The position numbers and the translations under genes were made by a program. Below are positions 24,067 to 64,000 of a stretch of 64,000 bases of DNA, piece by piece. How positions within the stretch are numbered: position 1 is the first letter of the stretch; the number at the start of each line of letters is the position of its first letter. Origin of the DNA: Candidatus Bathyarchaeota archaeon (GTDB lineage Archaea > Thermoproteota > Bathyarchaeia > Bathyarchaeales > Bathycorpusculaceae); NCBI GenBank assembly GCA_963767735.1, contig CAVYES010000006.1, forward strand, positions 192,001 to 256,000, in the 5' to 3' direction. The notes below the pieces were generated by a model. The model made no database searches. It saw nothing but the letters and a program-made list of their open reading frames with translations, and was not told the DNA's origin.

Positions 24067-25374
24067 TTAAGATTGGTTAGGTGCGAATTCCCAAGCGATA
24101 TTTCCTTTCCAGATCTCCCCTAACTTTGTTATTCTAACCTCTTTGTCGTCAATTTCAATTAATCCTTTATCTTTTAGTTTTTGAAGCTGCTTTGGAAAAA
24201 CTTTTTCTGGTGTGGTGCCGAATTTTTGCATAAATTCTTTTTTGCTAACTGGCAGCCGTAGGTATAATCGGGTCATTGTCCGTCTCATCATATCTTCGGT
24301 AGTTGACTCTGAAAGTCTACTTATGGGTAGTTTTCCTTCTTTTACAGCTGTCATGTAATCGTTTATGTTTTCAATGTTAGAGTAAGAAAACTTTTGCAGA
24401 TACCCCATGAAGCAGCCTGCGCCCGTTGTCAGTATGCCTCCCCATGGCCAACCGTTTAGGCAGTTCTCTCGCATGTGCCACTCTACTCTGCTGAAGCGGT
24501 CATGACCAACTGCCTTGTAGCCTGCTTCAGTCAGCATTTTGTAGGCGGTAAGGTACATTTGCTTTTCATATTCTGCACCGCCAGTAGGCGGAGAAACTCC
24601 AGTCTTAATCATTTTTTCAAGTGCGGTGCCTGAATCAACATGTAACGAATAAGTATCGATCTCGACATCGAGTTCAATCGTCTTCTTTAGCGTGCTGATC
24701 CAGCTTTCCATTGTCTGTCCTGGAAGATTGTACATGAGGTCCACGCATACGCACAGGTTCAGTTTTCGTGCGTGCCGAATGGCTTTTTCAACGTCAGCTG
24801 CACTGTCGGGTAAGCAAAGCATTTTTCGTAGTCGGTCGTCAAATGTTTGCGCCCCCATATCCACTTGATACACGCCGTACTCGGCGAGTTTATCAATTTT
24901 CTTAAGCGCAAGCGTCTTTGAGGAACCGGTCACCTTGATAAAATATTCCTTATTAATATTGAAATTTGCTTTGCAGAAGTCAATGAGGTCAATCATCTGC
25001 TCAGCAGCCAAGACACTAGGTGTTCCACCCCCTAAAACTATTTCATCAAATACGCTTGTCTTCACATATTTGGTTTTGGCGTACATTTCGAGCTCTTTCT
25101 TGAGGAGTTCAAGATACGGCTCTATCTTCACTTTGCTTGTGGCGGTGGTTGGAAAATAGCAGAAAGCGCATCTTGAGTCGCAAACAGAAATCCACGGTTG
25201 AAGCTCCATTAATCTTCCTGACGTATTCTCAGTAGTCAAGAACTCCATGAACGCTTTATACGTTTCAGGTTTAATGCCTGGATAATCCCTATACGTGTAA
25301 GGCGGCCAATTTTCACGCGAGGCGTAAACTTCTGACTTGCCTTTTTCAAGCTCAGAGTTTTTTTCCATCAACAA
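24067..25374 (-). CDS. HemN-like (class C) radical SAM protein
   Basis: CDSRCAFC, LGGGTPS, GAQTFDD, DLMYNLPGQT, C-terminal HemN_C-like region. Confidence 0.85.
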   Translation of the reverse strand: MLMEKNSELEKGKSEVYASRENWPPYTYRDYPGIKPETYKAFMEFLTTENTSGRLMELQPWISVCDSRCAFCYFPTTATSKVKIEPYLELLKKELEMYAKTKYVKTSVFDEIVLGGGTPSVLAAEQMIDLIDFCKANFNINKEYFIKVTGSSKTLALKKIDKLAEYGVYQVDMGAQTFDDRLRKMLCLPDSAADVEKAIRHARKLNLCVCVDLMYNLPGQTMESWISTLKKTIELDVEIDTYSLHVDSGTALEKMIKTGVSPPTGGAEYEKQMYLTAYKMLTEAGYKAVGHDRFSRVEWHMRENCLNGWPWGGILTTGAGCFMGYLQKFSYSNIENINDYMTAVKEGKLPISRLSESTTEDMMRRTMTRLYLRLPVSKKEFMQKFGTTPEKVFPKQLQKLKDKGLIEIDDKEVRITKLGEIWKGNIAWEFAPNQS

Positions 25375-25508
25375 TCCCCTTGATTGTCTTTTTAAAACGG
25401 TTTGATAACATAATAAAGATTACGTTAAAACGCCAAATTAACTAAAAAAGTGCCAGTTAACATCTTTAGCCAAAAGTGCACCGCTCCGACAAGACAAGAT
25501 CTATGTTG

Positions 25509-26612
25509 CTATTTGCTTCTTTTCCTGAAAACCCATGCAGCTACGGCTATAGCAGTTATTGTTATTGCAGCGGCTCCAACAGTTAGACTTGTGTCAAATG
25601 AAGCCGCATTTTTGTTCGGTTGCGATGGCGAAGCCGTGGGAAGTGATGATGGCGGGGTGTTAGATATTTCCAAATAGCCCATTATTGTGCAGTACGCTAT
25701 TTGTCCATTGTCTGCCCAGACCCCCACTTCGACGCCGTTAGCAGGAACGTTGACCGTACCATTATTCGAGTAAAATTGGATCACCCAGATTGGTCGCAAC
25801 GTAAGATTGTCAACATCTCCAATCAATGCCGCTTGAGGATTATCAGTCAAAGTAACGGTGACGTTTGGGTCATCTGTGTTGGCTGCATTCCACGCGAGGT
25901 TTTCAGCTTTCTGCTCTGGCACGTTTATACTTAAGCTGTTGCTTGTTTGATAAAAGCTCCACTTATCGCTGAAAGATGTTAGAATTCCGCTTGAAAACAC
26001 CAAGCTAAGGCACTTCTGGTCGTAGTCAACTCCATCAGCCACGTAATGCCAATTTAGCGTTGTCGAACCGTCATCGACCTCTATTGTGCACTTAAGATTA
26101 CCCGTGGTTACGGTGGCGTTGTTCAAACCGTTCAGGCTTGGATTGGTATCCAACATATTTAGCATCGGCTGCACGTAGGCTGCTTCATTGTAGTTCTCAT
26201 AACTTTGCAGAACCCACTTGACTTCCCCAAGAACGGTCGAGGGTTCTGCCTGAGAATAAAGAGGCGAAACAGTGGAACCGTCATAAGTCCATAATCCGCA
26301 AAGTTCCAAAGTGCCGTTTACGAACGTGAAAGTTGCTGCTAAGCTGTGAGTAGACGTCAACGTCAGGTTGACAGTGATGCTTTCCACTGGTAATCCTTCA
26401 AAACCCGTGTTAGGAGGAGCCGCTGAACTTGGGGCATAAGCAACTACTGTTTTATCGTAACTGGACATGTTAAAATCAAGCACGTTGGCCAAAAAGGAAT
26501 AAGCCTGATTTTGCGCCGTTGCTTCAATCGAGTAGACTCTAGGCACACCTGCGAATAATAGAATTGAAGCTATTAGCAGAATCAAAATCAGACGGCAGTT
26601 TTTTTTATCCAT
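25509..26612 (-). CDS. Secreted, C-terminally anchored protein with a PepSY-like segment
   Basis: Signal peptide; EQKAENLA...LRPIWVIQF...VGVWADNGQI; Pro/Ser linker, TM helix and RKRSK tail. Confidence 0.65.
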   Translation of the reverse strand: MDKKNCRLILILLIASILLFAGVPRVYSIEATAQNQAYSFLANVLDFNMSSYDKTVVAYAPSSAAPPNTGFEGLPVESITVNLTLTSTHSLAATFTFVNGTLELCGLWTYDGSTVSPLYSQAEPSTVLGEVKWVLQSYENYNEAAYVQPMLNMLDTNPSLNGLNNATVTTGNLKCTIEVDDGSTTLNWHYVADGVDYDQKCLSLVFSSGILTSFSDKWSFYQTSNSLSINVPEQKAENLAWNAANTDDPNVTVTLTDNPQAALIGDVDNLTLRPIWVIQFYSNNGTVNVPANGVEVGVWADNGQIAYCTIMGYLEISNTPPSSLPTASPSQPNKNAASFDTSLTVGAAAITITAIAVAAWVFRKRSK

Positions 26613-26625
26613 AATTTAGGCTCTC

Positions 26626-27549
26626 CTAGCTAACGTTTGGGAGCACCAAGTTGCCATCACCTATAACAACCATTACGCCTGGAAAATACGTCCATGCCCC
26701 GTTCATTTGCTGGTATTCCATGTATCCCTCGTATAGAGGGTTCATGCTGAACAAAGGTTGCGTCGCATTCAACGCGTTTGACGCATAGTTAAGAGCCATA
26801 GTTACAGAGGTGCCGCAGTCGACGAAGTAATAATAAAAGTAATCGACAAAGGTAGCATAAGTTTCTCCAACTACGTTCTCGTAGGGGTCAGAGAGGTTTT
26901 TAGCGCAACCGTTGAAGCCTATGTAGCATATTCCACTGTTGTCGGCGCCGGCGCCATAGCCGTTAAGGCTAAGTCCGGTAGTTTGGGTGAATGCGTATGG
27001 CATTCCGACTGGGCCCGTATTGTTTTGTGTATCCCAGTATCCGTAGATTGTTTTGCCGTTTTGGGTCCATTCGTCTCCGTTCATGCATGTCCAAATGAAA
27101 GTGAACTTATTTTTTGAGCCGTTAGCAATGTTGTAAATTTTGGAGTCTTGAATGGCGTTGGAGACAGCGCCAGAGTTGCTTCCGTAATAGTAAAAGTGCC
27201 AAGTATTGCATGTTGGTTGATATTGAAAGCCGTTGCCGGTGGAAAACCACGCTAGAAAATCATCGGCACTGCTGTTATCAACGTTACTCATGCAAGCATA
27301 TGCATTAGTGGCGGTAGTTTGGTTTGCTGAAAACCACAAGCTGTCCCAATTAGCAGAGAGCGAGTTGAAAGTGCTGTTTATGTAATTGCACACCGCATCT
27401 TCGGCGTTCTGTTCGCCACTGGGCTGCAAGTAATATGTCTCCCAGACAGTGTTAACATGCATTCCTTGCACACGTTGCTGGGTTAGCGAAGCTACTAAGA
27501 AACTAAGCAACATAAGGACGCATATTATAGTCACGTAGGTTCTTTTCAC
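26626..27549 (-). CDS. Secreted protein, possibly caspase/gingipain-like fold (DUF6345-like)
   Basis: Signal peptide; DFLAWFSTGNG...FTFIWTC...CYIGF...VVIGD. Confidence 0.55.
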   Translation of the reverse strand: MKRTYVTIICVLMLLSFLVASLTQQRVQGMHVNTVWETYYLQPSGEQNAEDAVCNYINSTFNSLSANWDSLWFSANQTTATNAYACMSNVDNSSADDFLAWFSTGNGFQYQPTCNTWHFYYYGSNSGAVSNAIQDSKIYNIANGSKNKFTFIWTCMNGDEWTQNGKTIYGYWDTQNNTGPVGMPYAFTQTTGLSLNGYGAGADNSGICYIGFNGCAKNLSDPYENVVGETYATFVDYFYYYFVDCGTSVTMALNYASNALNATQPLFSMNPLYEGYMEYQQMNGAWTYFPGVMVVIGDGNLVLPNVS

Positions 27550-27845: not shown

Positions 27846-30086
27846 CTATCTCTTATGCTTCTTTTTAAATAGCACAATTGCCGATGCCACAGACGATGCT
27901 GTAATTACCGCTAAAATTGCCGAAATGGGGACTGCATTTGATGACGAATAAGTCTGTTTGCTTGATAAGGAACCAAACGCATAGAGTATATGGTTGTATG
28001 AGCCAACGTAAACTATGCTGTTGGCTATGGCGGGTGAAGAGACAACCATTCCTCCTGTTCCATAACTCCAAATGCAAGCGCCCGTCAAAGCGTCCAAGGC
28101 ATAAATTTTGCCATCGTAGGAACCAACGTAAACTATTCCACTTGCTACTGCAGGCGAAGAAGCAACCTCTCCTCCGGTTTCGTAACCCCACAGGAATTTT
28201 CCGTTAGATGCGTCCAGAGCATAAACCTTGTTGTCCCCTGAACCCACATAGACCTCGCCATTAGCTATGGCAGGTGAAGAAGCTACAACTCCGCTCGTGG
28301 AATAATTCCAAACCAGCAGCCCTGTTACAGCATTTAAAGCGTAAATATTGTGGTCATATGAACCCACGTAAACTATGCCATTGGCAACCGCAGGAGATGA
28401 AACCACATAACCGTTCGTATTGAACTTCCAAATTAAAGCTCCATTCAAAGCATTCAACGAATATACATTATCATCATTAGAGCCAATGTAAATTCTGCCG
28501 TCGTAAACTGCAGGAGATGAAACTGTTATTTGCCCGCCTGTAGTATACTTCCAAACAAAAGCTCCATTCGAGGCATCCAAAGCGTAAACACTGCCGTCTT
28601 CTGAACCCACATAAACTACGTCGTTATTCACTGAAGGAGAAGAAATCACTGGACCGCCCGTTTTATAACTCCAAATGTACTGTCCCGTTGTAGCGTTTAA
28701 GGCATAGACGTAACTGTTATATGAGCCTACGTAAACTGCTCCGTCAGCAACCGCCGGAGAAGAGAACATTATCATGCCACCAGTAGAATAGCTCCACACA
28801 ACATTGTTATGAAGCTCCAAATTGAAACCAACCATACCCGTCGACGCATTCAAGGCATAAACCACTCCATCATGAGAACCAACATATGCTAAACCACCCG
28901 CTACAGTCGGGGACGAATCAATCTCGCCGCCAGTAGCATAGCTCCAAACAAAGCCGCCGTCCGTTGCGTTCAAAGCATAAAGCTTTCCGTCCCACGATCC
29001 CACATAAACCATGCCATTGGCAACGGCTGGACGAGAAACCACAATATCATCTGTCACGTAGTTCCACATTAGCTCGCCGTTTGACGTATTCAGAGCATAA
29101 ACTTTGTTATCCTCTGAACCAACGTAAACCACGCCACCCGATACCGTTGGAGAAGATGCCACAACACCACCCGTTGTGTAGTTCCAAACGTATTTGCCGT
29201 TAGAGGCGTTCAAAGCGTAAACCCTATTGTCTGCTGATCCTATGAAAACTAAACCGTCAAGAACGTCTGGAGACGAGTAAACCGCACCGCCAGTGGTGAA
29301 GTTCCACAAAGACTTGCCACTTGAAGCGTCTAAGGCGTACACCTTATCATCTGATGAACCCACGTAAACTATGCCGTTGAAGACCGCTGGGGAAGAAGAT
29401 ATTTCGCCGTCCGTCAAGTAGTTCCAAACGAGTTTGCCGTCTGTCGAGTTTAGCGCGTAAATCTTGTCGTCTAATGAGCCAACATAGGTTATGCCTTCAC
29501 TCACGACAACTGAAGATAACATTATTCTGTCGCCAGTCGCATAGTTCCATATGTAAGCTCCCGTGGTGGCGTTCAAAGCGTAAACACTGTCGTCTTCTGA
29601 ACCAAAATAAACGATTCCGTTTGCAACAATTGGGTCTGAATCAACATAATATCCTGTTGTGTAGTTCCACAGTTCGTCGCCATTAACTGCGTTAAAGGCG
29701 TAAAGGTTATGGTCCTCTGAACCAACGTAAACTACGCCGTCAACCACAGCGGGACGAGAAATCACTATGCCGCCGGTAGGTGAATCCCATATTATTTCCC
29801 CCGTGGAGGCGTTAAAAGCGTAAACCTCACGGTCATACGACCCTACATACACCACGCCGTCAACTACCGAGGGTGAACCCACTTGACCACCAGTATTAAA
29901 TGTCCACAAAGTCTGGTTCGTTTCCGGCCCTAGCGAATTTGAATATCCCACATGAGCTACATCATCTTGAAACATGGGCCATGAATCCATGCTCACCTGG
30001 TTTCCCGCGGAAGCGACACTTTCTAAAATGCCTGAGGCTAAAAATAGCGCAATCAAGACAAGGCAAACACTAGCGGTTCTTTTCAT
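27846..30086 (-). CDS. Membrane-anchored PQQ-like (BamB/AfsK-type) beta-propeller protein with 16 repeats
   Basis: WPMFQ.D..H.G followed by 16 copies of SSPAV.NG.VYVGS.D..VYALNA.TG..VWNY.TGG; signal peptide; TM helix and KKKHKR tail. Confidence 0.9.
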   Translation of the reverse strand: MKRTASVCLVLIALFLASGILESVASAGNQVSMDSWPMFQDDVAHVGYSNSLGPETNQTLWTFNTGGQVGSPSVVDGVVYVGSYDREVYAFNASTGEIIWDSPTGGIVISRPAVVDGVVYVGSEDHNLYAFNAVNGDELWNYTTGYYVDSDPIVANGIVYFGSEDDSVYALNATTGAYIWNYATGDRIMLSSVVVSEGITYVGSLDDKIYALNSTDGKLVWNYLTDGEISSSPAVFNGIVYVGSSDDKVYALDASSGKSLWNFTTGGAVYSSPDVLDGLVFIGSADNRVYALNASNGKYVWNYTTGGVVASSPTVSGGVVYVGSEDNKVYALNTSNGELMWNYVTDDIVVSRPAVANGMVYVGSWDGKLYALNATDGGFVWSYATGGEIDSSPTVAGGLAYVGSHDGVVYALNASTGMVGFNLELHNNVVWSYSTGGMIMFSSPAVADGAVYVGSYNSYVYALNATTGQYIWSYKTGGPVISSPSVNNDVVYVGSEDGSVYALDASNGAFVWKYTTGGQITVSSPAVYDGRIYIGSNDDNVYSLNALNGALIWKFNTNGYVVSSPAVANGIVYVGSYDHNIYALNAVTGLLVWNYSTSGVVASSPAIANGEVYVGSGDNKVYALDASNGKFLWGYETGGEVASSPAVASGIVYVGSYDGKIYALDALTGACIWSYGTGGMVVSSPAIANSIVYVGSYNHILYAFGSLSSKQTYSSSNAVPISAILAVITASSVASAIVLFKKKHKR

Positions 30087-30169: not shown

Positions 30170-31243
30170 CTATTTCTTGCGAAGACTTTCAGGTACATAC
30201 ACGCATGCTGGATCAGATTCGTAAATGTCCTCCGTGTAAGCGAATGCTCTGTTTCTGCAGCCTCCACAAAGTTCTCGATATTCGCAGACTCCGCATTTCC
30301 CCTTCAGAACATTTCTATCCTGGAAGCTCCTGTAATACTTCGATTCCTGAATTTCTTTCCATGCCGTCGTAAGGCTTTTTTCTCTAATGTTTCCCAGCAT
30401 CATTGGTTCTGAAGGCCGAAGATCGGTGTAGAAGCACGGTATTAAATCGCCATTCTCAGTTACACTCAAGTATCCGCCAAAAGCAAAATAGGTGCATTTG
30501 CCGTGAAACTTATGTTCGTACCACTCGTCAAAATTCGCGGGGTTCCTTTGTTTCACAACACGCGCATAATGTGGGCAATGTACATGAATTTCAAATTTGC
30601 CTTCGTACTTCTGAGTTAAATCCCATATGTGATTAAGCGTCCACTCGTACTGCTCAGGAGTCGGGGTTAACTCCATTGTTTCTTTTGCTCTTCCGCTAGG
30701 AACAAGATGGTTAAACCAAACAAAGTTCGCATGGTATTGCTCAGCTAACTCTGCGACGTGGTCTAAATGCTTATAGTTTATGGTTGTAATTGCGCATGCT
30801 AAACCGTTTAGAATTTTACCTTTCGATAACTTCTCGATAGCTGCCAACGCCTTTTTGTATGATCCTTTTCCTCTTAATTGATCGTTGATTTCTTCTGGTC
30901 CATCTATGCTTACAGATGTCCAAACTTGATTTTTTACCAAGTTATCGTAAATTTTTCCATCCACAAAGCATCCGTTAGTTAACAAGCACACGTTGAGACC
31001 TAGACTTTTTGCGTGATCTACAATTTCGAAGATGTCTTCACGCATTAGGGGTTCGCCGCCTTTTATGCCGAACCATCTTACGCCGAAGTTATGAACCTCA
31101 TCCACTAACTGTAGCGCCTCTTTTGTGGTCATTTCTCGTGGGGCATGCTTACCAGTAGCGTCAACATTGCAGTATTTGCAACGGGCATTGCAAGCGCCTG
31201 TTGCCCTCCAAGAAGTCATAAGTAACGGACCTTTACTTGTCAA
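30170..31243 (-). CDS. Radical SAM/SPASM protein (PqqE/NirJ/AhbD-like)
   Basis: CNARCKYC, GGEPLMR, SPASM C..C.Y...CGGCRNRA...DPAC. Confidence 0.9.
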   Translation of the reverse strand: MTSKGPLLMTSWRATGACNARCKYCNVDATGKHAPREMTTKEALQLVDEVHNFGVRWFGIKGGEPLMREDIFEIVDHAKSLGLNVCLLTNGCFVDGKIYDNLVKNQVWTSVSIDGPEEINDQLRGKGSYKKALAAIEKLSKGKILNGLACAITTINYKHLDHVAELAEQYHANFVWFNHLVPSGRAKETMELTPTPEQYEWTLNHIWDLTQKYEGKFEIHVHCPHYARVVKQRNPANFDEWYEHKFHGKCTYFAFGGYLSVTENGDLIPCFYTDLRPSEPMMLGNIREKSLTTAWKEIQESKYYRSFQDRNVLKGKCGVCEYRELCGGCRNRAFAYTEDIYESDPACVYVPESLRKK

Positions 31244-46452: not shown

Positions 46453-46459
46453 ACCCAGT

Positions 46460-53924: not shown

Positions 53925-54066
53925 TCCGACTCAACATCCATGGTGCACTTTGGAATCTTCGATGATGGATAAACACATGAACTTATAAGCGTTTACGGAA
54001 ACCCGCCATCACACTGCAATTAGCTCAAAGAATTTATCTATCTTAGTGCACGCTTAAATTTAGTGT

Positions 54067-55183: not shown

Positions 55184-55721
55184 CTTTCCTTTCCTCCATT
55201 AACCTACCTGCTTCTTTTTCAACTTGCAACTGAGCTTTAAAGTGAGCGTTATACAGGTTAACAACCTTGTATAGCCAGTAAACTGACCCGATGCCCAGCG
55301 TAACAATTGTAATTAAAACATAAGTTTTTATCGGTATCGTCTGGGTCATAAACATCCGTTCTGGAAAAGCAGCCGCAAGAAACTTTTCCTGATTTCTCTC
55401 ATGCACCACTAAATCCCTAGACAATAAGTAAAGGATGACAAAAACCGGAATAACCAAAATGATGCTGACCGCCCAAGCCTTCGCATTCCTGTCTATAAAA
55501 TGTTCGCTCGTTGCCGGGGGCTCCTTTCCCTGGCTCCTCAGATAGGTGGCAACCTGATTTTCAAGTTTTGCTTCACGCTGAAAATGCTTATTTCTTCCCT
55601 CGATTAGTCGGTAGAACATGGGGAAAAACGCCAATCCAAAGGTAACGATCGCCGCCAGGAACCACATGGAAAACCAAATTTTCCTGTCGCTTCCAACTTT
55701 ACTCTGCATAGCGGTTTCCAT
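55167..55721 (-). CDS. DUF4234-like membrane protein
   Basis: Repeated L.IVT.G....YW/FY...N.HF motif; overlaps the cobD start. Confidence 0.65.
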   Translation of the reverse strand: METAMQSKVGSDRKIWFSMWFLAAIVTFGLAFFPMFYRLIEGRNKHFQREAKLENQVATYLRSQGKEPPATSEHFIDRNAKAWAVSIILVIPVFVILYLLSRDLVVHERNQEKFLAAAFPERMFMTQTIPIKTYVLITIVTLGIGSVYWLYKVVNLYNAHFKAQLQVEKEAGRLMEERKAVGHM

Positions 55722-55788
55722 GTAAATCCCGAACTGGCCCTTAAAGTGCTAACAAGGTTGGAGCACCCAAACTTTATAAGCTCTTCCA

Positions 55789-56505
55789 TTGGCATCTAAA
55801 AGTAAAATGAGCCGAAATGAAATGCTGCTTTCCATAATAATTCCCGTTTACAACGAGGAATTAACAATAGGTGACATAATCGAACGTGTAAAAAAGTCAG
55901 TGCAGCAAACAGGATTAAAAAGTGAAATTATAGTGGTGGATGACCGCTCTTATGATCGATCGCTTGAAGTTGCCAAAAAACATGGCATCAAAATCTATAC
56001 CCTAAAAGAACATTTGGGCAAGGGCTATGCTCTTCGTGCTGGTTTTGCCAAGGCAAAAGGCGACATTATAGTCACCATTGACTCAGATGGTTCACATCGA
56101 CCCGAAGAATTGCCAGAAGTCTTGGAGCCAATCCTGCAAGATCGAGCTGACCTAGTTATCGGTTCAAGGTATCAAAATCACAAGCATGTGGCTGCAAGGT
56201 GGCTGAACGCTTTCGGCGTGCGCCTATTCAATTATTTTATCCAGATGCTGACGGGCGTAGCCATTACTGATTCTCAATCAGGCTATCGTGCTATGAAACG
56301 CGAAGTCCTGAAAAGCCAGAAACCAAAGTCAGGAGGATACGAGATAGAGTCAGAGATGCTGGTCAAGACGGCGAAAAAAAAATTCCGAATCACTGAGGTT
56401 CCGATAAGTTTTGAGCAGCGAACCTACGGGAGGTCTGGAGTAGACCCGTTGGTTGATGGGTTCAAAATTATAATATCTATAGTTTCAGCTTACGTGAGGG
56501 GTTAA
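55789..56505 (+). CDS. GT2 glycosyltransferase, DPM-synthase-like
   Basis: IIPVYNEE, VDD.S.D, GKGYA, DSDGSH.P, DSQSGYRA. Confidence 0.9.
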   Translation: MASKSKMSRNEMLLSIIIPVYNEELTIGDIIERVKKSVQQTGLKSEIIVVDDRSYDRSLEVAKKHGIKIYTLKEHLGKGYALRAGFAKAKGDIIVTIDSDGSHRPEELPEVLEPILQDRADLVIGSRYQNHKHVAARWLNAFGVRLFNYFIQMLTGVAITDSQSGYRAMKREVLKSQKPKSGGYEIESEMLVKTAKKKFRITEVPISFEQRTYGRSGVDPLVDGFKIIISIVSAYVRG

Positions 56506-56509
56506 GCAA

Positions 56510-57514
56510 GTGGCTGGCAACGCGCTTCGTGAAGTTTCAATCATTGTTGCAGCCTACAATAATGAGCAAACAATTGAGGAGTGCCTAAAATCGATTCTGA
56601 CGCTAGATTATCCCTCGGGCTTCATTGAAGTTATCGTCATGGACGGAGGCTCAAAAGACGCTACGGTCAAAATAGCCCAAAATTTCCCAGTCAAAGTCGT
56701 TTCTATTCGTTTAAACGCTCCCGCAGCCTATAATTACGCCATGAAAATCGCTGCGCATTCGGTTCTGGGCTTCATAGATGCAGATGCTAAAGTCGAATCA
56801 GGATGGCTAAGAAAACTCGTACCTCACTTGGAAGAGCCTAAAGCGGCAGGAGTCAGCGGTAGCATAGAAACTTGGAATGCACAAAACCCGTGGGCAAAAA
56901 GCATCGGTTACGAACTTAAAAACCGATACAGCCGCATAGGAAAATACACAAGCCGCATAGCCACCATGAACCTGCTGTTGAAAAAAGAGGTTATCGAAGA
57001 GGCTGGCGGATGGGACGAAAACTTGCCAAGCCAATATGACACAGACTTAGGCTTCAGAATAAGCGCGAGGGGCTACAAAATCGCTTACGAACCAAACGCC
57101 GTCTGCTACCACTACAACAGACCTACGCTTCGGGCTTATTACAGGCAGCAGCTGCAGTACGGAAAAAACACTTTAAAACTATACTTTAAACACGGAAGCT
57201 TAGCCAAAGGCGATGAAATCACCGATTTTGGCATGAACATCCAGCCTGTGCTGCTGTTGGCAGTCATCGCCTTTTTCCTTGTCGGAATCATTCCAGCGCT
57301 CCGGCTGTTATGGCTCGGTTCAGGCTTAATCCTAGCGTTCATGCTCGTTTACTTCGTTTATTCCGCCGGCAAAATTGCCTTTAAGTTTCATGATAACGTG
57401 GCTTTTCGGTTAGTGGCGCTTTATTTTGTGAGAGCGTTCGCTTGGTTTGTCGGCGCAGTAACAACCACCATCAACTATGCTAGAGGCAAAGGGAGGAAAA
57501 CACTCGATGCGTAG
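56510..57514 (+). CDS. GT2 glycosyltransferase with C-terminal TM helices
   Basis: IVAAYNNE, DGGSKD, FIDAD, GGWDE, RQQ..YG. Confidence 0.88.
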   Translation: MAGNALREVSIIVAAYNNEQTIEECLKSILTLDYPSGFIEVIVMDGGSKDATVKIAQNFPVKVVSIRLNAPAAYNYAMKIAAHSVLGFIDADAKVESGWLRKLVPHLEEPKAAGVSGSIETWNAQNPWAKSIGYELKNRYSRIGKYTSRIATMNLLLKKEVIEEAGGWDENLPSQYDTDLGFRISARGYKIAYEPNAVCYHYNRPTLRAYYRQQLQYGKNTLKLYFKHGSLAKGDEITDFGMNIQPVLLLAVIAFFLVGIIPALRLLWLGSGLILAFMLVYFVYSAGKIAFKFHDNVAFRLVALYFVRAFAWFVGAVTTTINYARGKGRKTLDA

Positions 57515-58700
57515 CGTCTGCTTTGTTTCGCCTGAGTATTGGCCTCTTTCTGGTGGAACAGGCGCCTACGTTTACTATCTGTCAAACGAGCTTATGAAAA
57601 ACGGCTACAAAATCATCGTAGTCACAGGCTCTGACCAAACGTTAGACGTAGAAGTCAACGAGCAATTAAAGGTGTTTTTCCTAAAAATCCCCAAAGCACC
57701 CGTTATAAAATCGTTTATGCTTGCAGCCTCCAGCTACCGCAAACTAAACAGCGTCCGCGGAACCGTTAACGTGGATATCACGCATGCCAACTTGCCGTTA
57801 ACGCCGAACTTTGCAGTGCCGCCGAACTTTGGAAAAACACTCGTTTGCACCGTTCACTCAACATGGAAAGGCGAAGCACAAGCTATACGAGGCGAACCCT
57901 ACAGCAGGCTTAACGCCAACGAAAAGTTTATGGTAAGTTTCAACTGGTTTTTGCGGATTTTCGAAGAAAAAATGCTTGAGAACGTAAGAAAAATTATCGC
58001 TGTCAGCCACTTCACAAAACGCGAACTGCTTGACTACTACAAAGTGCCCGAAGAAAAAATCCGAGTCATCCACAACGGCGTCAACACAAGCAAGTTCCAG
58101 CCGGCAAAAGATAAGCGCAAAATCAAGGAAGAGCTCGGCTTTAACCCAAACGATTTAGCTATAGTGTCAGTGGGTAGGCTCTACGCACGCAAAGGTTTAT
58201 TCACGCTTATTGAAAGCATGCCCGCCATCATTAAGCGGTTCAAAAACGCCAAATTTATAATTTCAGGCAAAGGACAAAGCGACGAAATGCATAAACTCAT
58301 CGTCTATGCCGAAAAAATCGGCGTAAAAGACAACATAATCTTCACTGGTTACTATCCCGACAAGAAACTGCCCAAACTCTACCAAGCTGCAGACGTATTC
58401 GCTTTCTCCACATTCTATGAGCACCACCCCTTCGCTGTCCTCGAAGCTCTTTCAACAGGGTTGCCCGTGGTAACAACAAATGTTGGCGGAATTCCAGAAA
58501 CGATTGAAAATGGCAAAAACGGGTTCTTGGTTGAGCCGTTCAATCCAAAACAATTCGGCGACAAGATACTGTATTTGCTTGATCACCCATCTGAAGCGTC
58601 GGAAATGGGGGTTCTTGCCAGAAAAAGCATTTTAGAACGTTTTGATTGGCGCATCGTCGTTAAAGACGCCATGAAAGTTTATGATGAAGCGCTTGGCTAA
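57507..58700 (+). CDS. GT4 glycosyltransferase
   Basis: EYWP..GG, IHNGV, VGRL..RKG, EHHPFAVLEALSTGLPVV. Confidence 0.9.
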   Translation: MRSVCFVSPEYWPLSGGTGAYVYYLSNELMKNGYKIIVVTGSDQTLDVEVNEQLKVFFLKIPKAPVIKSFMLAASSYRKLNSVRGTVNVDITHANLPLTPNFAVPPNFGKTLVCTVHSTWKGEAQAIRGEPYSRLNANEKFMVSFNWFLRIFEEKMLENVRKIIAVSHFTKRELLDYYKVPEEKIRVIHNGVNTSKFQPAKDKRKIKEELGFNPNDLAIVSVGRLYARKGLFTLIESMPAIIKRFKNAKFIISGKGQSDEMHKLIVYAEKIGVKDNIIFTGYYPDKKLPKLYQAADVFAFSTFYEHHPFAVLEALSTGLPVVTTNVGGIPETIENGKNGFLVEPFNPKQFGDKILYLLDHPSEASEMGVLARKSILERFDWRIVVKDAMKVYDEALG

Positions 58701-59659
58701 GCGATTTGTACTGGTTCTCGCCTGTAAGCCACCGTTACTTTCTGGAAAAGCTTTACTACATCAAGAGAGCAAAACAGCAGCTTCGTTAAGTACTCATGCT
58801 GATAAATTGTCATCTGGGCTTTTACCGGCAAATCAATCCGCGGTGGCTCAAATTTGTGCTCAACCATGGCAATCGGCAAACCTTCAACACTAAGGTCCCC
58901 TTCTCGTAGACCCGTTTTGTCGGCGATGTACCCCAGATAGGTTTCCTTCCAGTTCAACATCATAACTTTGGCGGCAGTTACGTCAACGGCTAACGCGTCG
59001 CTGCCTGACAGCATTAACCCCATTTTGACTGGTTTGCCTTTAGTTGGACCATTGCCTTCGATGCCTATCCTTGCATCCATAATCGTTAATTGTGGCCTAA
59101 GCAGGTTGTATAATCGATAGAGCACTTCCGGTAAGTAAGGATGTAAATAGATGCGTTTGTTGCTGGGAACGCAGCCGAAGAGGTTTTTGATGGCGCCGCT
59201 GAAAGCCATAAACTCATGCGTTTTCATCAAAGGCAAATCCACCACAGCATCCGCATCCAACAAGGTTTTAGGTAGAAACAGCCGCTTCAATGGAGTGCTG
59301 CCTTGAAATTTTACTTCGACAACTTTATCTTCGGAGAGGTTGATGACGCTGCCACCTGCCGCTTTTACTGCGGCTTCGACGCCTGTTTTATCGAACGCTG
59401 TCCAGCAGGGATAGTTAAAGCCATTTGATTCGCCCACAATGACTTCGCTGTTTCCGTCGCGGAGCAAGCCGACGAGTTGCTGCATCAATTCAGGGCTCGT
59501 AACAACGCCCGGCAGGTATTCTGGGTGACTTAAGTTTGGCTTAATGAAAATTTTGCGTTTGCCATGTAACCCTGAATTATCGACGGCTTCCTTTACAATC
59601 TCGCTTACGTCATCTTTTGCACGGAAAATTTTAACTGTTTTCTGCTCTACGCGTGGCAT
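58697..59659 (-). CDS. DUF362-family protein
   Basis: IKPN, VVTSPE, LP.MKTH, GAIKNLFG, GIEGNGP, DALAVD. Confidence 0.85.
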   Translation of the reverse strand: MPRVEQKTVKIFRAKDDVSEIVKEAVDNSGLHGKRKIFIKPNLSHPEYLPGVVTSPELMQQLVGLLRDGNSEVIVGESNGFNYPCWTAFDKTGVEAAVKAAGGSVINLSEDKVVEVKFQGSTPLKRLFLPKTLLDADAVVDLPLMKTHEFMAFSGAIKNLFGCVPSNKRIYLHPYLPEVLYRLYNLLRPQLTIMDARIGIEGNGPTKGKPVKMGLMLSGSDALAVDVTAAKVMMLNWKETYLGYIADKTGLREGDLSVEGLPIAMVEHKFEPPRIDLPVKAQMTIYQHEYLTKLLFCSLDVVKLFQKVTVAYRREPVQIA

Positions 59660-59661
59660 AA

Positions 59662-61087
59662 CTATGCACCCTTCACTTGTTTTCCCATTATGCAGCCTGG
59701 GTCAGAATTGAGCATGTCACCGTTATGGTATGCAGCTGACCGTGCTCTGCACCCGCCGCAAATGTACTTGTAGTCGCATTTTCCGCAGGCTCCTTTTAGG
59801 TTGCCTCTGTTGCGTAAAGATTTAAAGAGTGGCGAGTTCAGCCAGATATCCTGAAACTTTTCCGTTTTCAGGTTTCCAACGTTTACCGGGAGAAAGACGC
59901 ATGGGTGAACATCGCCTTGAGGCGAGAGAGAACAGTATAATCTTCCTGCGCCGCAGCCGCCAATGAAATCCGCCAGCGGCACGGCTTTCTTGGTGACTTT
60001 GACGGTTTGCATGTGCGCCATAGACATAGTTACTTCGCCTGTGCCTTGCTGGTCCTTGACATTGCAAGCCAACGCGGGCTAGCTGGGGCGCCGTGGTGAG
60101 AATGGTTGTTTTGCAGCCCTTCGACATCCTTGCAAGCAGGTACCGCATGAGTTTTTCGCGTTCTTCAGGAGAGAGGTCTTGGTCGTAGTGTGCTTTGCCT
60201 CTGCCTGTTGGAATGAAGTTGAAGTAAGTGAACCGCTCCGCACCTACGTCTTCGGCTAAATCGATAATTGCCGGCATTTCTTCAAGGTTATTTTTAGTAG
60301 CCGTGGTAGCTATGCATACGCATAAATCAGCTTCAACACAGTTCTTCAACCCCGCAACTGCCCTATCAAAAGCGCCCGGTACACCTCGAAACTCGTCATG
60401 TGTTTTGGCGGATGCGCCGTCTATGCTGATGTCTAAATAGTTAACTTTGGCTTGCTTTAGCTTCTGCACAGTTTCCTTGGTAAGCAGGGTGCCGTTTGTA
60501 GCGACCGACACGTAGAGCCCGCGGTCGGCGGCATGCCTTGCAACTTCAAAGAAGTCTTTTCGGCTCAGTGGTTCACCGCCTGAAAAAGCCAGCGCTGTCA
60601 CTCCGGCATCGGCAAGCTGATCAACCACCGCCAAGGCTTCTTTGGTTGTTAATTCTTCCTCGTTGACTGCGCCACTGTTTGAGTAGCAGTGCTTGCAGCT
60701 CAAGTTACATTTATGCGTGAAATCCCAAACAATCAAGAAAGGCGCATAAAGCGAGATTGGCTTTTTAATTCCCATGTAAGCGAAGGACTTTGTCAAGTTG
60801 GTTATTGCTCTTCGCGCATATGGGTCAGCTAAGAGCTTTTCAACTTTTTCCCGCTTAATGTTTAGGCTTCTTCTTAGAAATTCAACCCAAAAACCAATAA
60901 CCTGCGAGTACAAAGCGCTGCATTTCTCACAGTTCTGCTCGGTTTTTCCAGAATAAGAGTCCAATGCTGCTTCAAGAACCGTTCTGCCGCAAGCAGGGCA
61001 TTTTTTTAGAGATAGCCGCAGCATTTTTTTTGTCATGGGCAGAGTTATCACTGCGTTCCAGAAGCTATCATGACTCAATAGACTCAT
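59662..61087 (-). CDS. Radical SAM/SPASM protein with N-terminal Cys motifs, GMGT-synthase (Gms)-like; frameshift near 60055
   Basis: CPACG..LE.ALD.Y...CEKC, APFLIVWDFTHKCNLSCKHCY, FNFIPTGRG, TTAPQLARV, ADFIGGCGAGR, CGKCDYKYICGGCRAR, DPGC. Confidence 0.85.
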
Positions 61088-61235
61088 CCGCGGTCGGACT
61101 CCTGAATCAGCAACAGTTGTAGAGTAGGTTACGTGGGGATGTTAAAGATTTCTCCGCAACGGCTTAAATCGAGGATTTTTAAAACTTATTCTGCCGAGAG
61201 TTTTATAAGTCAAAAAATCATATAGCCCGAAGGAT

Positions 61236-62304
61236 ATGCTTCCCACCTTCAAACAGGACTTACCGTTAATAACCATAGGGATAGTGGTTTTCAATAGGGA
61301 ATGGATATTGAAAAAATGCTTGCTTCAGTGCAAAGCCAAACTTATCCTCATGATAAACTCTTTGTGTTGGTGGTGGATGGGAAAAGCAAAGACAACACCG
61401 TAAAGATTGCCGAGCAAGTTTTAGCTAAATCCGATTTTAACGGTTGTCAAGTCATCGTTAAAGAATCAAATATTCCTGAGGCTAGAAACATCTGCATTCA
61501 AAACATGAGGGGCGATTTTCTTCTTTTTTGGGACAGCGACGTGATAATGGAATCAACAGCCGTCGCTCACTCACTTGAAACACTCAAAAAAGAAAACGCC
61601 GACATGGTCCAATCAACAATCACCCAGGTAACCGTTGACTCAGCGGATGAAATAGCTGAAAAATGGAGAGCGTGGGAAACAAAATATCCTCGACAAGAAA
61701 AAACCAGAATCGTTAACTTAACTGGAACCGGTAATCTTCTAATCTCAAAAAAAGTATTAACGCAGTTATCCTTTGACCCAGATTTAACTTTTTTTGAAGA
61801 CCAAGATTTCACGTCACGTGCAACAAAGCAAGGCTTCAAAGTATTGGAGACAAAAAACGTCATTGGTTTTGACGTTAATTCAAATAAGCCCTACAGTAGC
61901 ATCTACGCATTTGATATGCCCCTAAAAGAAGCGTTGCGGGGGATTCGCAAAAAGGAAAATTTCAAGCGCAAAACGTCACAGCCAACTCCTCTTCAATCAG
62001 CAAAGCAACGATAGAATTCTTTTTGGCAAACAAACGCTACATATTTTACGTTGGCTACATCCCAATCATAATCTTAACGTTTGTTGGAGTTTTGATTCAG
62101 AATTTGTGGTTGAGTCTGATTTTTCCAGTTTACTTTTTGCTCTACGTAGGTGTTCAGCTGGCGAGAAGAGGATTTGCCAAAGGGCTCAACGTTGCAGTTA
62201 GAAGCTTTATTGTCGGAATCCCCACAACTTGCAGCCTCCTCTACTACTGCATAAAGTTAAGCGTCAAAAATCAAAAAAAGCTTAGCAATAAACCCGCAGC
62301 TTAA
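61236..62304 (+). CDS. GT2 glycosyltransferase with C-terminal TMs; frameshifts near 61305 and 61960
   Basis: ITIGIVVFNRE, VDGKSKDNT, ARN, FWDSD, FDP....FED.DF. Confidence 0.8.
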
Positions 62305-62308
62305 CCAG

Positions 62309-62932
62309 TCACCTTTTCAGGTTTCTGTTCATTATTTTTTCTGCAATTTCCAAATCCTTAAGCGTGTTAATGTTTAGAAGAACTTCAACCTCTTCTGTGA
62401 TAAGGGCGCTTGTTTCAATTTTGCCGACGCCTTGAATTTTGGCGCCGTTAACAATGTTGACTCCCGAAACGGCATACCATTCGCCCATGTACTCGTCAGT
62501 AGAGTCAACGGAGAGTCCTAGAGCTTCACGGGCTGATACTGGGACGAAAACGGCGTAGAAGTCTTTACCGCAGGCTTCAAACTGTCTGATGATTCTGTCA
62601 AGAAATTTACCCGTGACAGCAGGAGAATCAGCTGGAATCGTCAAGACAGGACCCATCAAATCAGCCATAGCTGCCGCCTGCTTCAAATCATTATGATAGC
62701 CTTTGGCGTCTGTACGCAGCACATTCCACCCATTGCTTAGGCAGTGTTTCTCCGTTTCAGGCGTGTTTGCACTGGTCACAACGTAAAACTCTAAAACTTT
62801 CTCCGCGCTCGCAACCGCCTCAGCAACCCAATCAATCAGCGGTTTACCTAAAAAAAGCAAAAGTGGCTTCTCCACTGGCAAACCCATGCGTTTGCCTTTT
62901 CCGCCAGCCATAATCAAAGCGGGAACTTTCAT
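62309..62932 (-). CDS. cobY: Adenosylcobinamide-phosphate guanylyltransferase
   Basis: ALIMAGGKGKRMG..EKPL, SANTPET, GY..DL, NINT..DL; adjacent to cobS. Confidence 0.88.
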   Translation of the reverse strand: MKVPALIMAGGKGKRMGLPVEKPLLLFLGKPLIDWVAEAVASAEKVLEFYVVTSANTPETEKHCLSNGWNVLRTDAKGYHNDLKQAAAMADLMGPVLTIPADSPAVTGKFLDRIIRQFEACGKDFYAVFVPVSAREALGLSVDSTDEYMGEWYAVSGVNIVNGAKIQGVGKIETSALITEEVEVLLNINTLKDLEIAEKIMNRNLKR

Positions 62933-63759
62933 ATCAGCATCAACACTCCTGCAATCAAAATAAGCGTAACTGCCCTAGCCACCTCGTTGGTTGCCCCAAT
63001 CATGTCGCCTGAAACTCCGCCGAAAACGTTTTCCGCAACTTTCTCCATAACGAGCGCCACTGGAATGCTGACTAAAACCAATCCGACGGCAACTAAACCT
63101 AAAAACGGTTTACCCGTCAAACCAAAAAACGGGTAGACAATCAAAATAGAAAGCGCGTAAGCGATAATATTGAGTTTCTTTTTGGCTTTTTGAAGGAAAA
63201 TAGAACCTAACCCTTTATGTGTAGGTTTCCCCACCCAAACAATCGTAACCATAGCTAATTTCGCTGAGAGTTCAGCCGCAACTATACCTCCGAAAGCATA
63301 AAGCGGGTTAATTAAAAATAAGCCTGCGAAAGCGGCAAACTCGACAATAATCGCGAGCAGTGCTCCCCAGTAAGTTACCGTCCAAGCGTGGGCAACCATT
63401 TTGCGGTCATGCAAATTTCTAAGCCCAAACGCGTTGCCTAAATCGATTAAGCCGTCAAAATGTTGGAGTCCAGTTACGACAAGCAGAAAAGCCACGGTCA
63501 TCGCGGAAACCGCTAGCTTTGTCAATAAGTCAGTTGGCAAGGCAATGATCGGGTTAACTAGGTTGAGTAGGAAATGAACGATGATGCTTGCGCCGATGAA
63601 GTAAGCGCCGGCCAGTATGCCTATGATAGCGCCAATAAATGGGAAAAGGTACATGTGCTCGGCTGTGGTGAAAATGAAATCTTCCTTTCCGCCCACGGGG
63701 ATTATTGTTAGGAAAGACAGTAAATCCCTAAAAGTTTTTATAGCTTTCAGCGGCGACAT
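62929..63759 (-). CDS. cobS: Adenosylcobinamide-GDP ribazoletransferase
   Basis: FLTIIP, TGLQHFDGLIDLGNA, GLG..F, FGGVSGDMIGATNE. Confidence 0.92.
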   Translation of the reverse strand: MSPLKAIKTFRDLLSFLTIIPVGGKEDFIFTTAEHMYLFPFIGAIIGILAGAYFIGASIIVHFLLNLVNPIIALPTDLLTKLAVSAMTVAFLLVVTGLQHFDGLIDLGNAFGLRNLHDRKMVAHAWTVTYWGALLAIIVEFAAFAGLFLINPLYAFGGIVAAELSAKLAMVTIVWVGKPTHKGLGSIFLQKAKKKLNIIAYALSILIVYPFFGLTGKPFLGLVAVGLVLVSIPVALVMEKVAENVFGGVSGDMIGATNEVARAVTLILIAGVLMLI

Positions 63760-63805
63760 ATACCCTACAACTATCTAAAGATAATATAGACTTTGTCGTG
63801 ATTAT

Positions 63806-64000
63806 ATGGGGGAACTTAAAGAGAAAAAAATACTAGTCACTGGCGGCGCGGGGTTTATCGGCTTTCATTTGTGTAGTAGGCTATCGGGACTAACGTCCGA
63901 CTTAACAATTTATGATAACTTATCAAGCGGCAAAAAAGAAAACGTAAAAGACGTCCCAAACGCCAAATTCATTAAAGGCGACATTTTGGACCTCAAAAAA
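63806..64000 (+). CDS. NAD-dependent NDP-sugar epimerase/dehydratase, 5' part (runs off window end)
   Basis: MGELKEKKILVTGGAGFIG...YDNLSSGKKEN...FIKGDILD. Confidence 0.88.
   Translation, partial: MGELKEKKILVTGGAGFIGFHLCSRLSGLTSDLTIYDNLSSGKKENVKDVPNAKFIKGDILDLKK

Follow-up and report, generated by a model that had tools for sequence, protein, structure and literature searches.

Why should nine radical S-adenosylmethionine (SAM) genes, six of them for B12-binding enzymes, stand within 37 kb of archaeal DNA among genes for glycosyltransferases and for the late steps of cobamide synthesis? The DNA concerned, here called the window, is a stretch of 64,000 nucleotides from a Candidatus Bathyarchaeota archaeon (assembly GCA_963767735.1, here G000), whose genome is of 3.04 Mb in 10 contigs and is 95% complete. 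The window is C6:192001-256000, where C6 is contig CAVYES010000006.1 and C2, C3, C4, C5, C7 and C8 are other contigs of the same genome; positions with no prefix are those of the window, L001 is the stretch 3′ of it, G-numbers denote relatives' genomes, L-numbers fetched loci, and f1, f7 and f26 families in a class sample of 121 genomes. The genes in question belong to an island of about 53 kb (C6:216067-269285) that occurs in Bathyarchaeia of the Bathy-6/Bathy-8 order; most of it lies within the window, and it continues for about 13 kb beyond the window's end. We read it, with moderate confidence, as a conserved island for lipid tailoring that carries a cobamide line of its own.

How firm is the gene count? 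Pfam and NCBIfam profile scans of 32 open reading frames (ORFs) between 24067 and 63759, with family membership judged by the NCBIfam cut-offs, find radical SAM domains in nine ORFs, six of them B12-binding, just as an earlier note on the window had counted, and the CX3CX2C motif is kept in all nine. The one HemN-like gene and the two SPASM genes which that note listed are there as well, the second SPASM domain being in a shifted frame (orthologues of 59662-61087 carry SPASM), and the same scans bear out the interleaving with cbiB, cobD, cobY, cobS, two DUF71 genes, family 2 and family 4 glycosyltransferase (GT2 and GT4) genes, DUF362 and a SAM methyltransferase. The whole genome has 51 Radical_SAM hits, which become 49 genes once split ones are merged, and 17 B12-binding hits; among 20,000 random placements none reached nine radical SAM genes in 37 kb, and none reached six B12-binding ones in 20 kb. 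Local duplication accounts for part of this density, since among the B12-binding radical SAM proteins, lettered A to F in window order from 34137 to 52700, D and F are 53% identical and C and E 59%.

Is such a gathering the property of one genome? Around B, six of eight same-genus loci (G003, G014, G001, G002, G010 and G012) hold 17-22 island genes in rearranged order, and the remaining two (G008 and G016, fetched as 40 kb) hold just four B12-binding radical SAM genes plus a DUF71 gene. Genus-wide, co-location extends to a block of Gms (a candidate glycerol monoalkyl glycerol tetraether, GMGT, synthase), DUF362, glycosyltransferase, CobD-CobY-CobS, Tes2 (a second copy of Tes) and UbiA genes with at least two types of B12-binding radical SAM gene, and also to SPASM and HemN-like genes, a DUF71 gene, an amidohydrolase gene and one beta-propeller gene. 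Among 13 Bathyarchaeia loci with Gms, the order GT4-GT2b-GT2a-membrane protein-CobD is present in ten, the remaining three loci ending early, and Tes2-UbiA-epimerase-CobS′-CobY′ lies inside the locus in seven (primes, as in CbiB′, CobD′, CobY′ and CobS′, mark island copies, CobS2 and CobY2 being second copies). Candidatus Bathyarchaeum sp., whose genus has been placed in the former subgroup-8 order (PMC10477458), keeps a compact form of the island within 35 kb of its 1.56-Mb genome (604379-639414); 26 genes match, at 31-65% protein identity (43-49% for GT4-GT2-GT2), and the order is B12 E-like, CbiB′, amidohydrolase, SPASM, B12 F-like, propeller, DUF71, SPASM, HemN-like, Gms, DUF362, GT4, GT2, GT2, membrane protein, CobD′, CobY′, CobS′, Tes2, UbiA, epimerase, DUF1616, GT2, GT4. 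Kept across the same-genus loci, the Bathyarchaeia Gms loci and Bathyarchaeum, the island is a conserved unit and not a chance pile-up, which answers the synteny check that the earlier note had proposed. It might still be supposed that there is no common function, and that a recombination-prone region gathers paralogues of B12-binding radical SAM genes together with cobamide genes and is kept among close relatives by descent. The gene order inside the island does vary between species, there are strain-specific insertions (a GT2 at 61301-62014, ORFs at 25509-27549, multi-copy surface genes), and 36 kb separates the Tes2 module from the radical SAM array in G001. However, with the gene set together in the Bathyarchaeum genome at the identities just given, the duplicated CbiB′ and CobS′ remaining inside the island, and a density that no random placement reached, this explanation is very improbable.

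What, then, does the island act on? One pointer is the radical SAM/SPASM gene at 59662-61087 (minus strand), a candidate Gms whose identity rests on architecture, distribution and context. Its orthologues are of 472-477 amino acids with a Pfam SPASM domain; the protein has CNLSCKHC at residue 127, and across 41 Gms homologues C127/C131/C134, C378, C396, C434 and C443 are invariant and C437, C446 and C465 nearly so. Searching with a 10-sequence alignment brought up full-length homologues of 36-49% identity in Methanomicrobia, Methanomethylicia, Archaeoglobi, Thermoplasmata/DHVE2, a Thermococcus metagenome-assembled genome (MAG), Ignisphaera, Methanobacteriaceae, Hadarchaeota, Asgard archaea, Acidobacteriota and Planctomycetes, taxa that match the distribution of Gms reported in the parts of PMC11214058 covered. 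With its counterpart in the published Bathy-6 complete MAG the protein shares 77% identity. As proxies for the characterised Gms of M. okinawensis, T. guaymasensis and P. furiosus, for which the yardstick is 30% identity or more with E below 1e-50, it is 46% identical to the Thermococcus sp. MAG protein and 39% to that of Ignisphaera sp. An AlphaFold 2 prediction for the orthologue P0006 (477 amino acids; pLDDT 89.8, pTM 0.91) has six N-terminal helices (7-15, 17-26, 37-45, 54-74, 79-86 and 89-105), a radical SAM barrel from 118, bridging helices with a hairpin at 352-356/360-364, and a Cys-rich C-terminal domain (SPASM). The predicted fold thus has the four-domain architecture described for Gms in the portion of PMC11186832 consulted, namely a six-helix N-domain, a radical SAM domain, bridging helices with a beta-hairpin, and SPASM, in more than 420 amino acids. 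NCBIfam holds no Gms model, and the protein scores 314 bits for AhbD against a cut-off of 500. In the class sample 73 genomes have Gms-type hits (E ≤1e-60). Outside loci of the Bathy-6/8 type, 10 of 67 Gms homologue loci have a B12-binding radical SAM gene directly alongside, which is the published gms-gmm pattern, and a few have Tes; the homologue adjoins the single Tes in three f26 genomes. The Thermococcus sp. homologue has its close relatives in DHVE2/Thermoplasmata, including Aciduliprofundum, and not in T. guaymasensis or P. furiosus, and a tblastn screen of its locus (L104) found no B12-binding radical SAM gene.

The company of the Gms-type gene is constant. A DUF362 gene (58697-59659, minus strand; Pfam 167.7 bits) stands next to the Gms homologue in all 13 Bathyarchaeia loci, and beyond it, as identified with Pfam and NCBIfam, are a GT4 gene (57477-58700), a GT2 gene (56510-57514) and a GT2 gene of AglJ or dolichyl phosphate-hexose type (55789-56505), all on the plus strand. 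Between the last of these and cobD′ is a gene for a small membrane protein of 184 amino acids (55167-55721, minus strand; DUF4234/DUF6693-like by Pfam) with three hydrophobic segments, kept in ten of the 13 loci and with ESM Atlas matches confined to bathyarchaeal DUF4234-like clusters. The other GT2 in the window (61301-62014, plus strand) is a truncated copy whose N-terminus is absent and which is 84% identical to part of a 354-amino acid GT2 at C6:30917-31981; because no counterpart was found in relatives at this position, between Gms and cobY′, it is, by sequence, a partial duplication of recent date, inserted in this genome.

A second pointer lies across the window's right-hand end, where the start of a nucleoside diphosphate (NDP)-sugar epimerase gene (63806-64000, plus strand; full ORF C6:255806-256738) is followed by UbiA, Tes2, DUF1616, GT2, GT4, DUF71, CobT, CobS2, CobY2, an AP_endonuc_2 ORF and CbiQ/CbiO (Pfam on L001). 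The best match of the UbiA protein is digeranylgeranylglyceryl phosphate (DGGGP) synthase, with scores for PRK12882/PRK12884 of 164.5 bits against 296 and 158.9 against 269, so that both cut-offs are missed; its orthologue, with 175.4 bits against 269, does not pass either, and two other UbiA genes of the genome do pass PRK12884, with 294 and 297 bits. Tes2 is a radical SAM protein with an HMPTM zinc ribbon, which aligns to residues 190-505 of the solved GDGT-MAS (7tol; GDGT, glycerol dialkyl glycerol tetraether) with E 2.8e-67, and its unbroken orthologue (L071:5094-6560) has 463.7 bits on the NCBIfam Tes model NF045702, above the cut-off of 450. Tes2 is a second copy: the canonical Tes1 (C6:22947-24269) scores 562.8 bits, and Tes2 is 35-43% identical to it. 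In this genome Tes2 is in two frames, of 162 and 293 bits on the Tes model, and the N-terminal piece keeps two CX3CX2C-type motifs. Across the class sample, genes of Tes2 type (at least 46% identity) are confined to 12 genomes, G000 among them, of families f1 and f7; Gms is within 10 kb of the Tes2-type gene in nine of them and on another contig in three, and Tes2 is always beside the divergent UbiA.

Does it matter that some of these genes are broken in the assembly? cobD′ is split across two frames (54067-54714 and 54692-55093), as is the Gms-type gene (59822-61087 plus the 59662-60072 frame). The base at 54728 is absent in contigs of two other public runs that are otherwise identical to the window, and that at 60050 is absent in contigs of three other runs, their source being a slightly different strain. 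Because the contigs of the other runs are without the extra base, 54728 and 60050 are very probably 1-nt assembly insertions, and cobD′ and the Gms-type gene intact in nature. The two Tes2 frames are L001:1617-2150 and 2113-3084, with the frameshift within L001:2113-2150, and Tes2 is an unbroken frame of 495-498 amino acids in five of five relatives. With two of the sites being single-base insertions relative to other runs, the split genes suggest systematic indel errors and not pseudogenes. Many genes of this assembly are broken up in this way; further ones are a B12-binding radical SAM gene at C8:8694-10177, in three pieces, and those at window positions 10269-11482 and 12606-14507, an aminotransferase gene and apparently that of threonyl-tRNA synthetase; Tes1 looks C-terminally short, with 440 amino acids against open frames of 501-536 in relatives.

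Has the island a cobamide supply of its own, as the earlier note claimed? The late archaeal pathway involves CbiB, CobD, CobY and CobS, with CobT. The island has CbiB′, an adenosylcobinamide-phosphate synthase paralogue (39604-40593) that passes the equivalog TIGR00380 with 237.9 bits against 165.9, and CobD′, CobY′ and CobS′, which match these families best but fall below their cut-offs: the threonine-phosphate decarboxylase-like CobD′ (54067-55093) with TIGR01140 pieces of 198.7 and 55.4 bits (cut-off 290.55), CobY′ (62309-62932) with 116.5 against 174.7, and CobS′ (62929-63759) with 108.9 against 110; all four genes are on the minus strand. In contrast to an ordinary late pathway, this is a second set, and it stands among lipid and glycosyltransferase genes. 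There is another cbiB-cobD pair at C4:73392-75509, its CbiB (C4:73392-74369; 285.6 bits) 44% identical to CbiB′ and its CobD (C4:74397-75509) scoring 313 bits against 290.55, and cobT-cobS2-cobY2 is at C6:263-266 kb, 8 kb downstream, CobS2 having 155.5 bits against 110. CobS′ and CobY′ are each 34% identical to CobS2/CobY2 (C6:264319-265697). Both CbiB types are present in seven of seven genomes (three of the same genus, two of f7, the Bathy-6 complete MAG and Bathyarchaeum), across which the CbiB′ type is 58-90% identical; in six of them no more than 27 kb separates it from Gms, Tes2 or further island genes, and in G114 it is on a separate contig. Bathyarchaeum already has CobS′ (S1) and CobS2 as separate types. 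By sequence, then, CbiB′ and CobS′ are old paralogues of the housekeeping copies, and cobD and cobY have second copies too, so that the claim of a supply of its own, now a duplicated paralogous line separate from the housekeeping genes, is better founded than could be known from the window. In the Bathy-6 complete MAG (G032; L075 and L190) the CobS1 type is paired with the CobY2 type and the CobS2 type with the CobY1 type; because the partners are swapped there, CobY′ is probably still an ordinary guanylyltransferase. The corrin-ring genes are at C2:222-237 kb, and CbiZ is at C8:29909 and C4:459882. Between CobY2 and CbiQ-CbiO lies the AP_endonuc_2 ORF mentioned above (C6:265752-266630, which is L001:9752-10630), of xylose-isomerase-like TIM-barrel type; the cobamide-remodelling CbiR has the same fold, and the ORF may be a remodelling or salvage gene.

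Which enzymes would use that cobamide? The six B12-binding radical SAM genes are A (34137-35606), B (38100-39548), C (40776-42173) and D (47402-48778) on the minus strand, and E (49823-51301) and F (51330-52700) on the plus strand; by Pfam each has a B12-binding and a radical SAM domain, the latter with CX3CX2C. Their best NCBIfam scores, to BchE, HpnJ, ApyD and Sden_1168, are 181-241 bits against cut-offs of 481-750, and the equivalog cut-offs (360-750) of BchE, HpnJ, HpnR, BzaD, PhpK, the methyl-coenzyme M reductase (MCR) Gln-methyltransferase and the ladderane B12-binding radical SAM protein are passed by none. A maximum-likelihood tree of 22 such sequences, with no characterised Gmm, Ted or Grs sequence among them, has three well-supported clades, A, C and E with two C8 paralogues, D with F, and B with C6:134310. 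To the Gms-adjacent B12-binding radical SAM proteins of other archaea the six are 29-41% identical, C and E being the best matches in the window (33-41%), and orthology with these Gmm-type proteins was not borne out. The three-clade result fits both the several non-canonical 'Gmm2' copies published for Bathyarchaeota, in the sections of PMC11214058 available, and the report, likewise available in part, of a bathyarchaeal Gmm homologue that is a desaturase and no methylase (bioRxiv 10.1101/2025.10.20.683597).

What ties these six to the lipid genes is position. The D type is the most tightly linked to the Gms block, being directly after CobD′ in L071-L074, and its pairing with a class I SAM methyltransferase gene (46571-47401, plus strand; Methyltransf_11) recurs there in L071 and L072. 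In Bathyarchaeum an F-type copy (57% identical to D) is 9 kb from Gms, and F-type and E-type copies together are 9-17 kb from it; within the window the nearest to Gms is F, 7 kb off. Orthologues of B (55-93% identity) are present in 18 of 18 same-genus genomes, and for 12 genomes drawn from the order's other families the identity of the best listed hits is 33-40%. Elsewhere in the genome, a paralogous group at C8:7695-30553 (L024 and L025) has a DUF71 gene (58% to DUF71a), a broken B12-binding radical SAM gene, two intact ones (43-60% to A, C and E) and a SPASM gene (46%), and encodes besides an RnfD-like/ferredoxin protein, a small corrinoid protein accompanied by an MtrH-like methyltransferase, and CbiZ; counterparts of the group adjoin the main island in G003, G014 and G001. 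Another B12-binding radical SAM gene (C3:113476-114852) stands with a further radical SAM gene beside DUF447 and pterin-binding (DUF4346) genes at C3:110987-117350 (L027), a context that is likely methanopterin-related, with no relation to the island.

Need the substrate of these enzymes be a lipid at all? The main rival is a serious one: two functions may lie side by side, with Gms, Tes2, UbiA and the glycosyltransferases acting on lipids, and the other radical SAM enzymes, DUF71 proteins, amidohydrolase and Cob′ proteins tailoring or remodelling a corrinoid or another tetrapyrrole, e.g., by ring or lower-ligand methylation, side-chain amidation, or exchange of linker and nucleotide loop. All four loop and linker steps are in the island as the second, older paralogous set, and cbiB′ is 55 bp upstream of B on the same strand, the two being direct neighbours also in G003, G014, G001 and G012. 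The Amidohydro_3 metal hydrolase gene (35952-37523, plus strand; Pfam 325.8 bits) has a fixed position between A and B, and is kept in six of eight same-genus loci and, at 49%, in Bathyarchaeum. The DUF71 proteins are PP-loop ATP pyrophosphatases, DUF71a (49021-49737, plus strand; Diphthami_syn_2) and DUF71b (53175-53924, minus strand; Pfam; 90% identical in G002, G010 and G012), paralogues of what NCBIfam names the diphthine-ammonia ligase Dph6, and the second group of B12-binding radical SAM, DUF71 and SPASM genes, on C8, ends beside CbiZ. The best characterised relatives of the radical SAM enzymes that do not bind B12 are also tetrapyrrole enzymes. The HemN-like, class C-type gene (24067-25374, minus strand; Radical_SAM plus HemN_C), which forms the left edge of the conserved island and has orthologues at 82-94% identity in four same-genus clusters and at 49% in Bathyarchaeum, there beside Gms, matches ChuW/HutW best among NCBIfam models, with 184.5 bits against 400, followed by HemW (142.1 against 205.4) and HemN (135.7 against 325); the first SPASM gene (30170-31243, minus strand; Radical_SAM plus SPASM by Pfam) has 212.7 bits against 500 for AhbD and 205 against 395 for TIGR04053. 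None of these cut-offs is passed, however, all the scores falling far short, as does BzaD with 103-147 bits against 450. Moreover, there are no corrin-ring genes within the island, those genes being on C2, and lipid and glycosyltransferase genes flank CobD′-CobY′-CobS′ on both sides, in Bathyarchaeum too, which would be unexpected for unrelated pathways. On balance a corrinoid or tetrapyrrole substrate seems to us somewhat unlikely. As to Dph6 itself, none of the three DUF71 proteins, a, b and the third one past the window's end (c), is that enzyme, with TIGR03679 scores of 99.7, 118 and 141.4 bits against 197.3; the true Dph6 is at C6:392542-393222, with 285.4 bits.

Might the substrate instead be a peptide or a surface protein, since SPASM and class B radical SAM enzymes are often peptide maturases, and the sub-threshold matches include such maturases as ApyD and 'rSAM_ocin_1'? 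The radical SAM, DUF71 and amidohydrolase genes would then modify a peptide or protein, in the manner of ribosomally synthesised and post-translationally modified peptides (RiPPs) or in maturation of a secreted propeller; a variant has them attack lignin-derived aromatics. The earlier note made three surface beta-propellers part of the system, and for one of them this has stood: the propeller at 31499-34042 (plus strand; Pfam), the sole conserved one of the island, keeps its place by the first SPASM gene, with orthologues of 62-72% identity next to that gene in G003, G014, G001 and G012 and of 52% in Bathyarchaeum, i.e., as far as Bathy-8. The other two, a 746-amino acid protein with a pyrroloquinoline quinone (PQQ)-like beta-propeller (27846-30086, minus strand; Pfam Beta-prop_ACSF4/PQQ_2) and a large surface protein of 937 amino acids (43639-46452, plus strand; weak PQQ_2/Filamin matches), have across the genome, respectively, upwards of 20 paralogous ORFs and 15 or more paralogues of 44-55% identity; because they are of such large multi-copy families they are probably incidental to the island, and their own proximity is correspondingly weak evidence. 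All three proteins have hydrophobic segments at both ends. No conserved precursor-like ORF emerged from 85 small ORFs in 15 intergenic gaps of more than 120 bp compared by tblastn with eight relatives, in agreement with the first impression that no RiPP precursor gene is present. The sole ORF from that hunt to be conserved along its whole length in several genomes is one of 98 amino acids at 52798-53094 (minus strand), between F and DUF71b, which is weakly like the C-terminus of MoeB/ThiF (PRK12475, E=8e-5) and 58-62% identical in G012, G002 and G010. For lignin, PMC11697101, in the parts covered, suggests such a role from 7-20 B12-binding radical SAM genes and tens of PQQ-domain proteins per Bathy-6 MAG, but the proposal there is built on gene abundance alone. 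Peptide, protein and lignin versions together we consider improbable.

To return to the lipid-tailoring island with its own cobamide line, how would it work? By family membership, the DGGGP synthase-like UbiA and Tes2 would build a dedicated diether or tetraether core, the Gms-type radical SAM/SPASM enzyme would cross-link two biphytanyl chains, and the GT2 and GT4 enzymes with the NDP-sugar epimerase would decorate head groups. By conserved association, the six class B radical SAM enzymes, in three subfamilies, may use cobamide to methylate isoprenoid chains or the backbone, or alternatively desaturate or cyclise chains, as Ted and Grs do, and CbiB′, CobD′, CobY′ and CobS′ may feed them, possibly with a distinct cobamide form. 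Of the earlier proposal of a lipid or glycan tailoring locus, it is thus the core of Gms, Tes2, UbiA and glycosyltransferases that has held; action of the six B12-binding enzymes on lipids is a matter of association, and the lipid reading gives no part to the HemN-like, SPASM, DUF71, amidohydrolase and DUF362 proteins. Several considerations pull the other way. The synteny is drawn entirely from a single order and is in part due to shared descent, and the Gms assignment was made without direct comparison to an experimentally characterised Gms. None of the six B12-binding proteins passes any curated NCBIfam cut-off, and their three clades fall outside the Gms-adjacent, Gmm-type clades, in a tree with an unresolved backbone and no characterised references. 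Among characterised families, those closest to the HemN-like enzyme and to the two SPASM enzymes act on tetrapyrroles (ChuW/HemW and AhbD/NirJ), with every score far below cut-off, and the four Cob paralogues, the amidation-type DUF71 enzymes and the amidohydrolase fit a corrinoid substrate as well as a lipid. Finally, the B12-binding radical SAM proteins of a Methanomassiliicoccus MAG, whose own lipids are undocumented, are only 26-32% identical to those of the island.

That last comparison was a phyletic check concerning butanetriol dialkyl glycerol tetraethers (BDGTs), of which the genus Methanomassiliicoccus includes a producer, and with that MAG it gave no support for a shared backbone methylase. 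BDGTs have been reported as a marker of a Bathy-8 genus, as cited in the parts of PMC12694404 and PMC13003381 covered; the BDGT link of the island is a lead only. A bolder form of the lipid reading, tentative and rather doubtful, has the island as the locus for tetraethers specific to the Bathy-6/Bathy-8 lineage, methylated on backbone or chain, cross-linked and glycosylated, e.g., BDGTs, pentanetriol dialkyl glycerol tetraethers (PDGTs) or methylated GMGTs, with the core from UbiA and Tes2, tailoring by Gms and the three subfamilies of class B enzymes, and a second cobamide, differing in its linker or loop, from the Cob′ line reserved for them.

How does the island compare with what has been described? 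Gmm, Ted and GDGT methylases are B12-binding radical SAM enzymes, Bathyarchaeota carry multiple 'Gmm2' copies, and Ted, a tetraether desaturase, demonstrates that Gmm homologues can do chemistry other than methylation (PMC11214058 and bioRxiv 10.1101/2025.10.20.683597, both as far as covered). The general idea of many Gmm-like B12-binding radical SAM genes and Gms in Bathyarchaeota is thus already published in the former. With the gms-gmm-grs cluster of Thermococcus guaymasensis, as set out in the accessible parts of PMC11214058 and PMC11186832, the island shares a radical SAM/SPASM gene of Gms architecture near B12-binding radical SAM genes in an anaerobic archaeon. It differs in having six of the latter, in three clades none of which groups with Gmm-type clades, and in adding a second Tes, a UbiA paralogue, five glycosyltransferases, DUF362, HemN-like and SPASM radical SAM genes, DUF71 ATPases and a duplicated late cobamide pathway. 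TIGR04190, tried as a marker of the Grs family, scored above its cut-off neither here nor in a Sulfolobus control and was dropped, and no Grs homologue was identified. The Ted-Grs-Hgs locus of Candidatus Bathyarchaeota B1_G15, known here from part of bioRxiv 10.1101/2025.10.20.683597, is akin in that a bathyarchaeal B12-binding radical SAM protein, about 31% identical to Gmm, was tied to lipids first by context; the context here is instead one of Gms, Tes2, UbiA and Cob paralogues, with no AttH-like hydratase in the regions annotated. The Bathy-6 genomes of PMC11697101 are of the same lineage and, besides the gene numbers given above, have many secreted PQQ propellers and multi-locus B12 synthesis, but the parts covered deal with abundance and a lignin role and do not describe clustering with Gms, Tes2, UbiA and Cob paralogues. 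In the literature searched, which did not extend to Dong et al. 2025 or to the supplements of PMC11697101 and PMC11214058, there was no description of the supercluster, of Tes2 with UbiA or of the duplicated Cob genes; within the same literature, again without Dong et al. 2025, no paper assigned the BDGT/PDGT backbone methylase or a role for the many 'Gmm2' proteins.

A few features of the window stand apart from these questions. Two genes for Lrp/AsnC-type regulators (42300-42731 and 42796-43341, minus strand; HTH_24/AsnC, with a weak LysM-type NCBIfam match) are kept as a pair in G003, G014, G001 and G012. Several paralogues of the 937-amino acid family are beside Lrp/AsnC-like genes elsewhere, e.g., at C3:50126-62079, C7:353844-358057 and C2:92430-100008, and a regulator of this type with such a surface protein is a recurring module. 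Two ORFs at 25509-27549 (minus strand), of 367 and 307 amino acids, have N-terminal hydrophobic segments and no family hit, and were not found in the clusters of relatives; paralogues of the former, 28-29% identical to it, are at C5:76735 and C4:409990. Rfam at gathering thresholds gave no match in the window, hence no evidence of a riboswitch, and no RNA dataset was listed as containing 54000-63900.

What is at stake for the biology of these archaea? Bathyarchaeia are among the most abundant archaea of soils and sediments, and their tetraethers, whether BDGT, GMGT or methylated, serve as biomarkers. The island provides a defined and conserved candidate set, Tes2 with UbiA, the Gms-type enzyme, three subfamilies of B12-binding radical SAM proteins and glycosyltransferases, that is testable in existing hosts. 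That a complete second set of genes for the cobamide linker and nucleotide loop was already inside this lipid and radical SAM island before Bathy-6 and Bathy-8 parted, and has stayed there, is an arrangement not previously reported; it prompts the question of whether a cobamide is set aside for the island's class B radical SAM enzymes. The island is a good place to test how soil Bathyarchaeia build their unusual membrane lipids.

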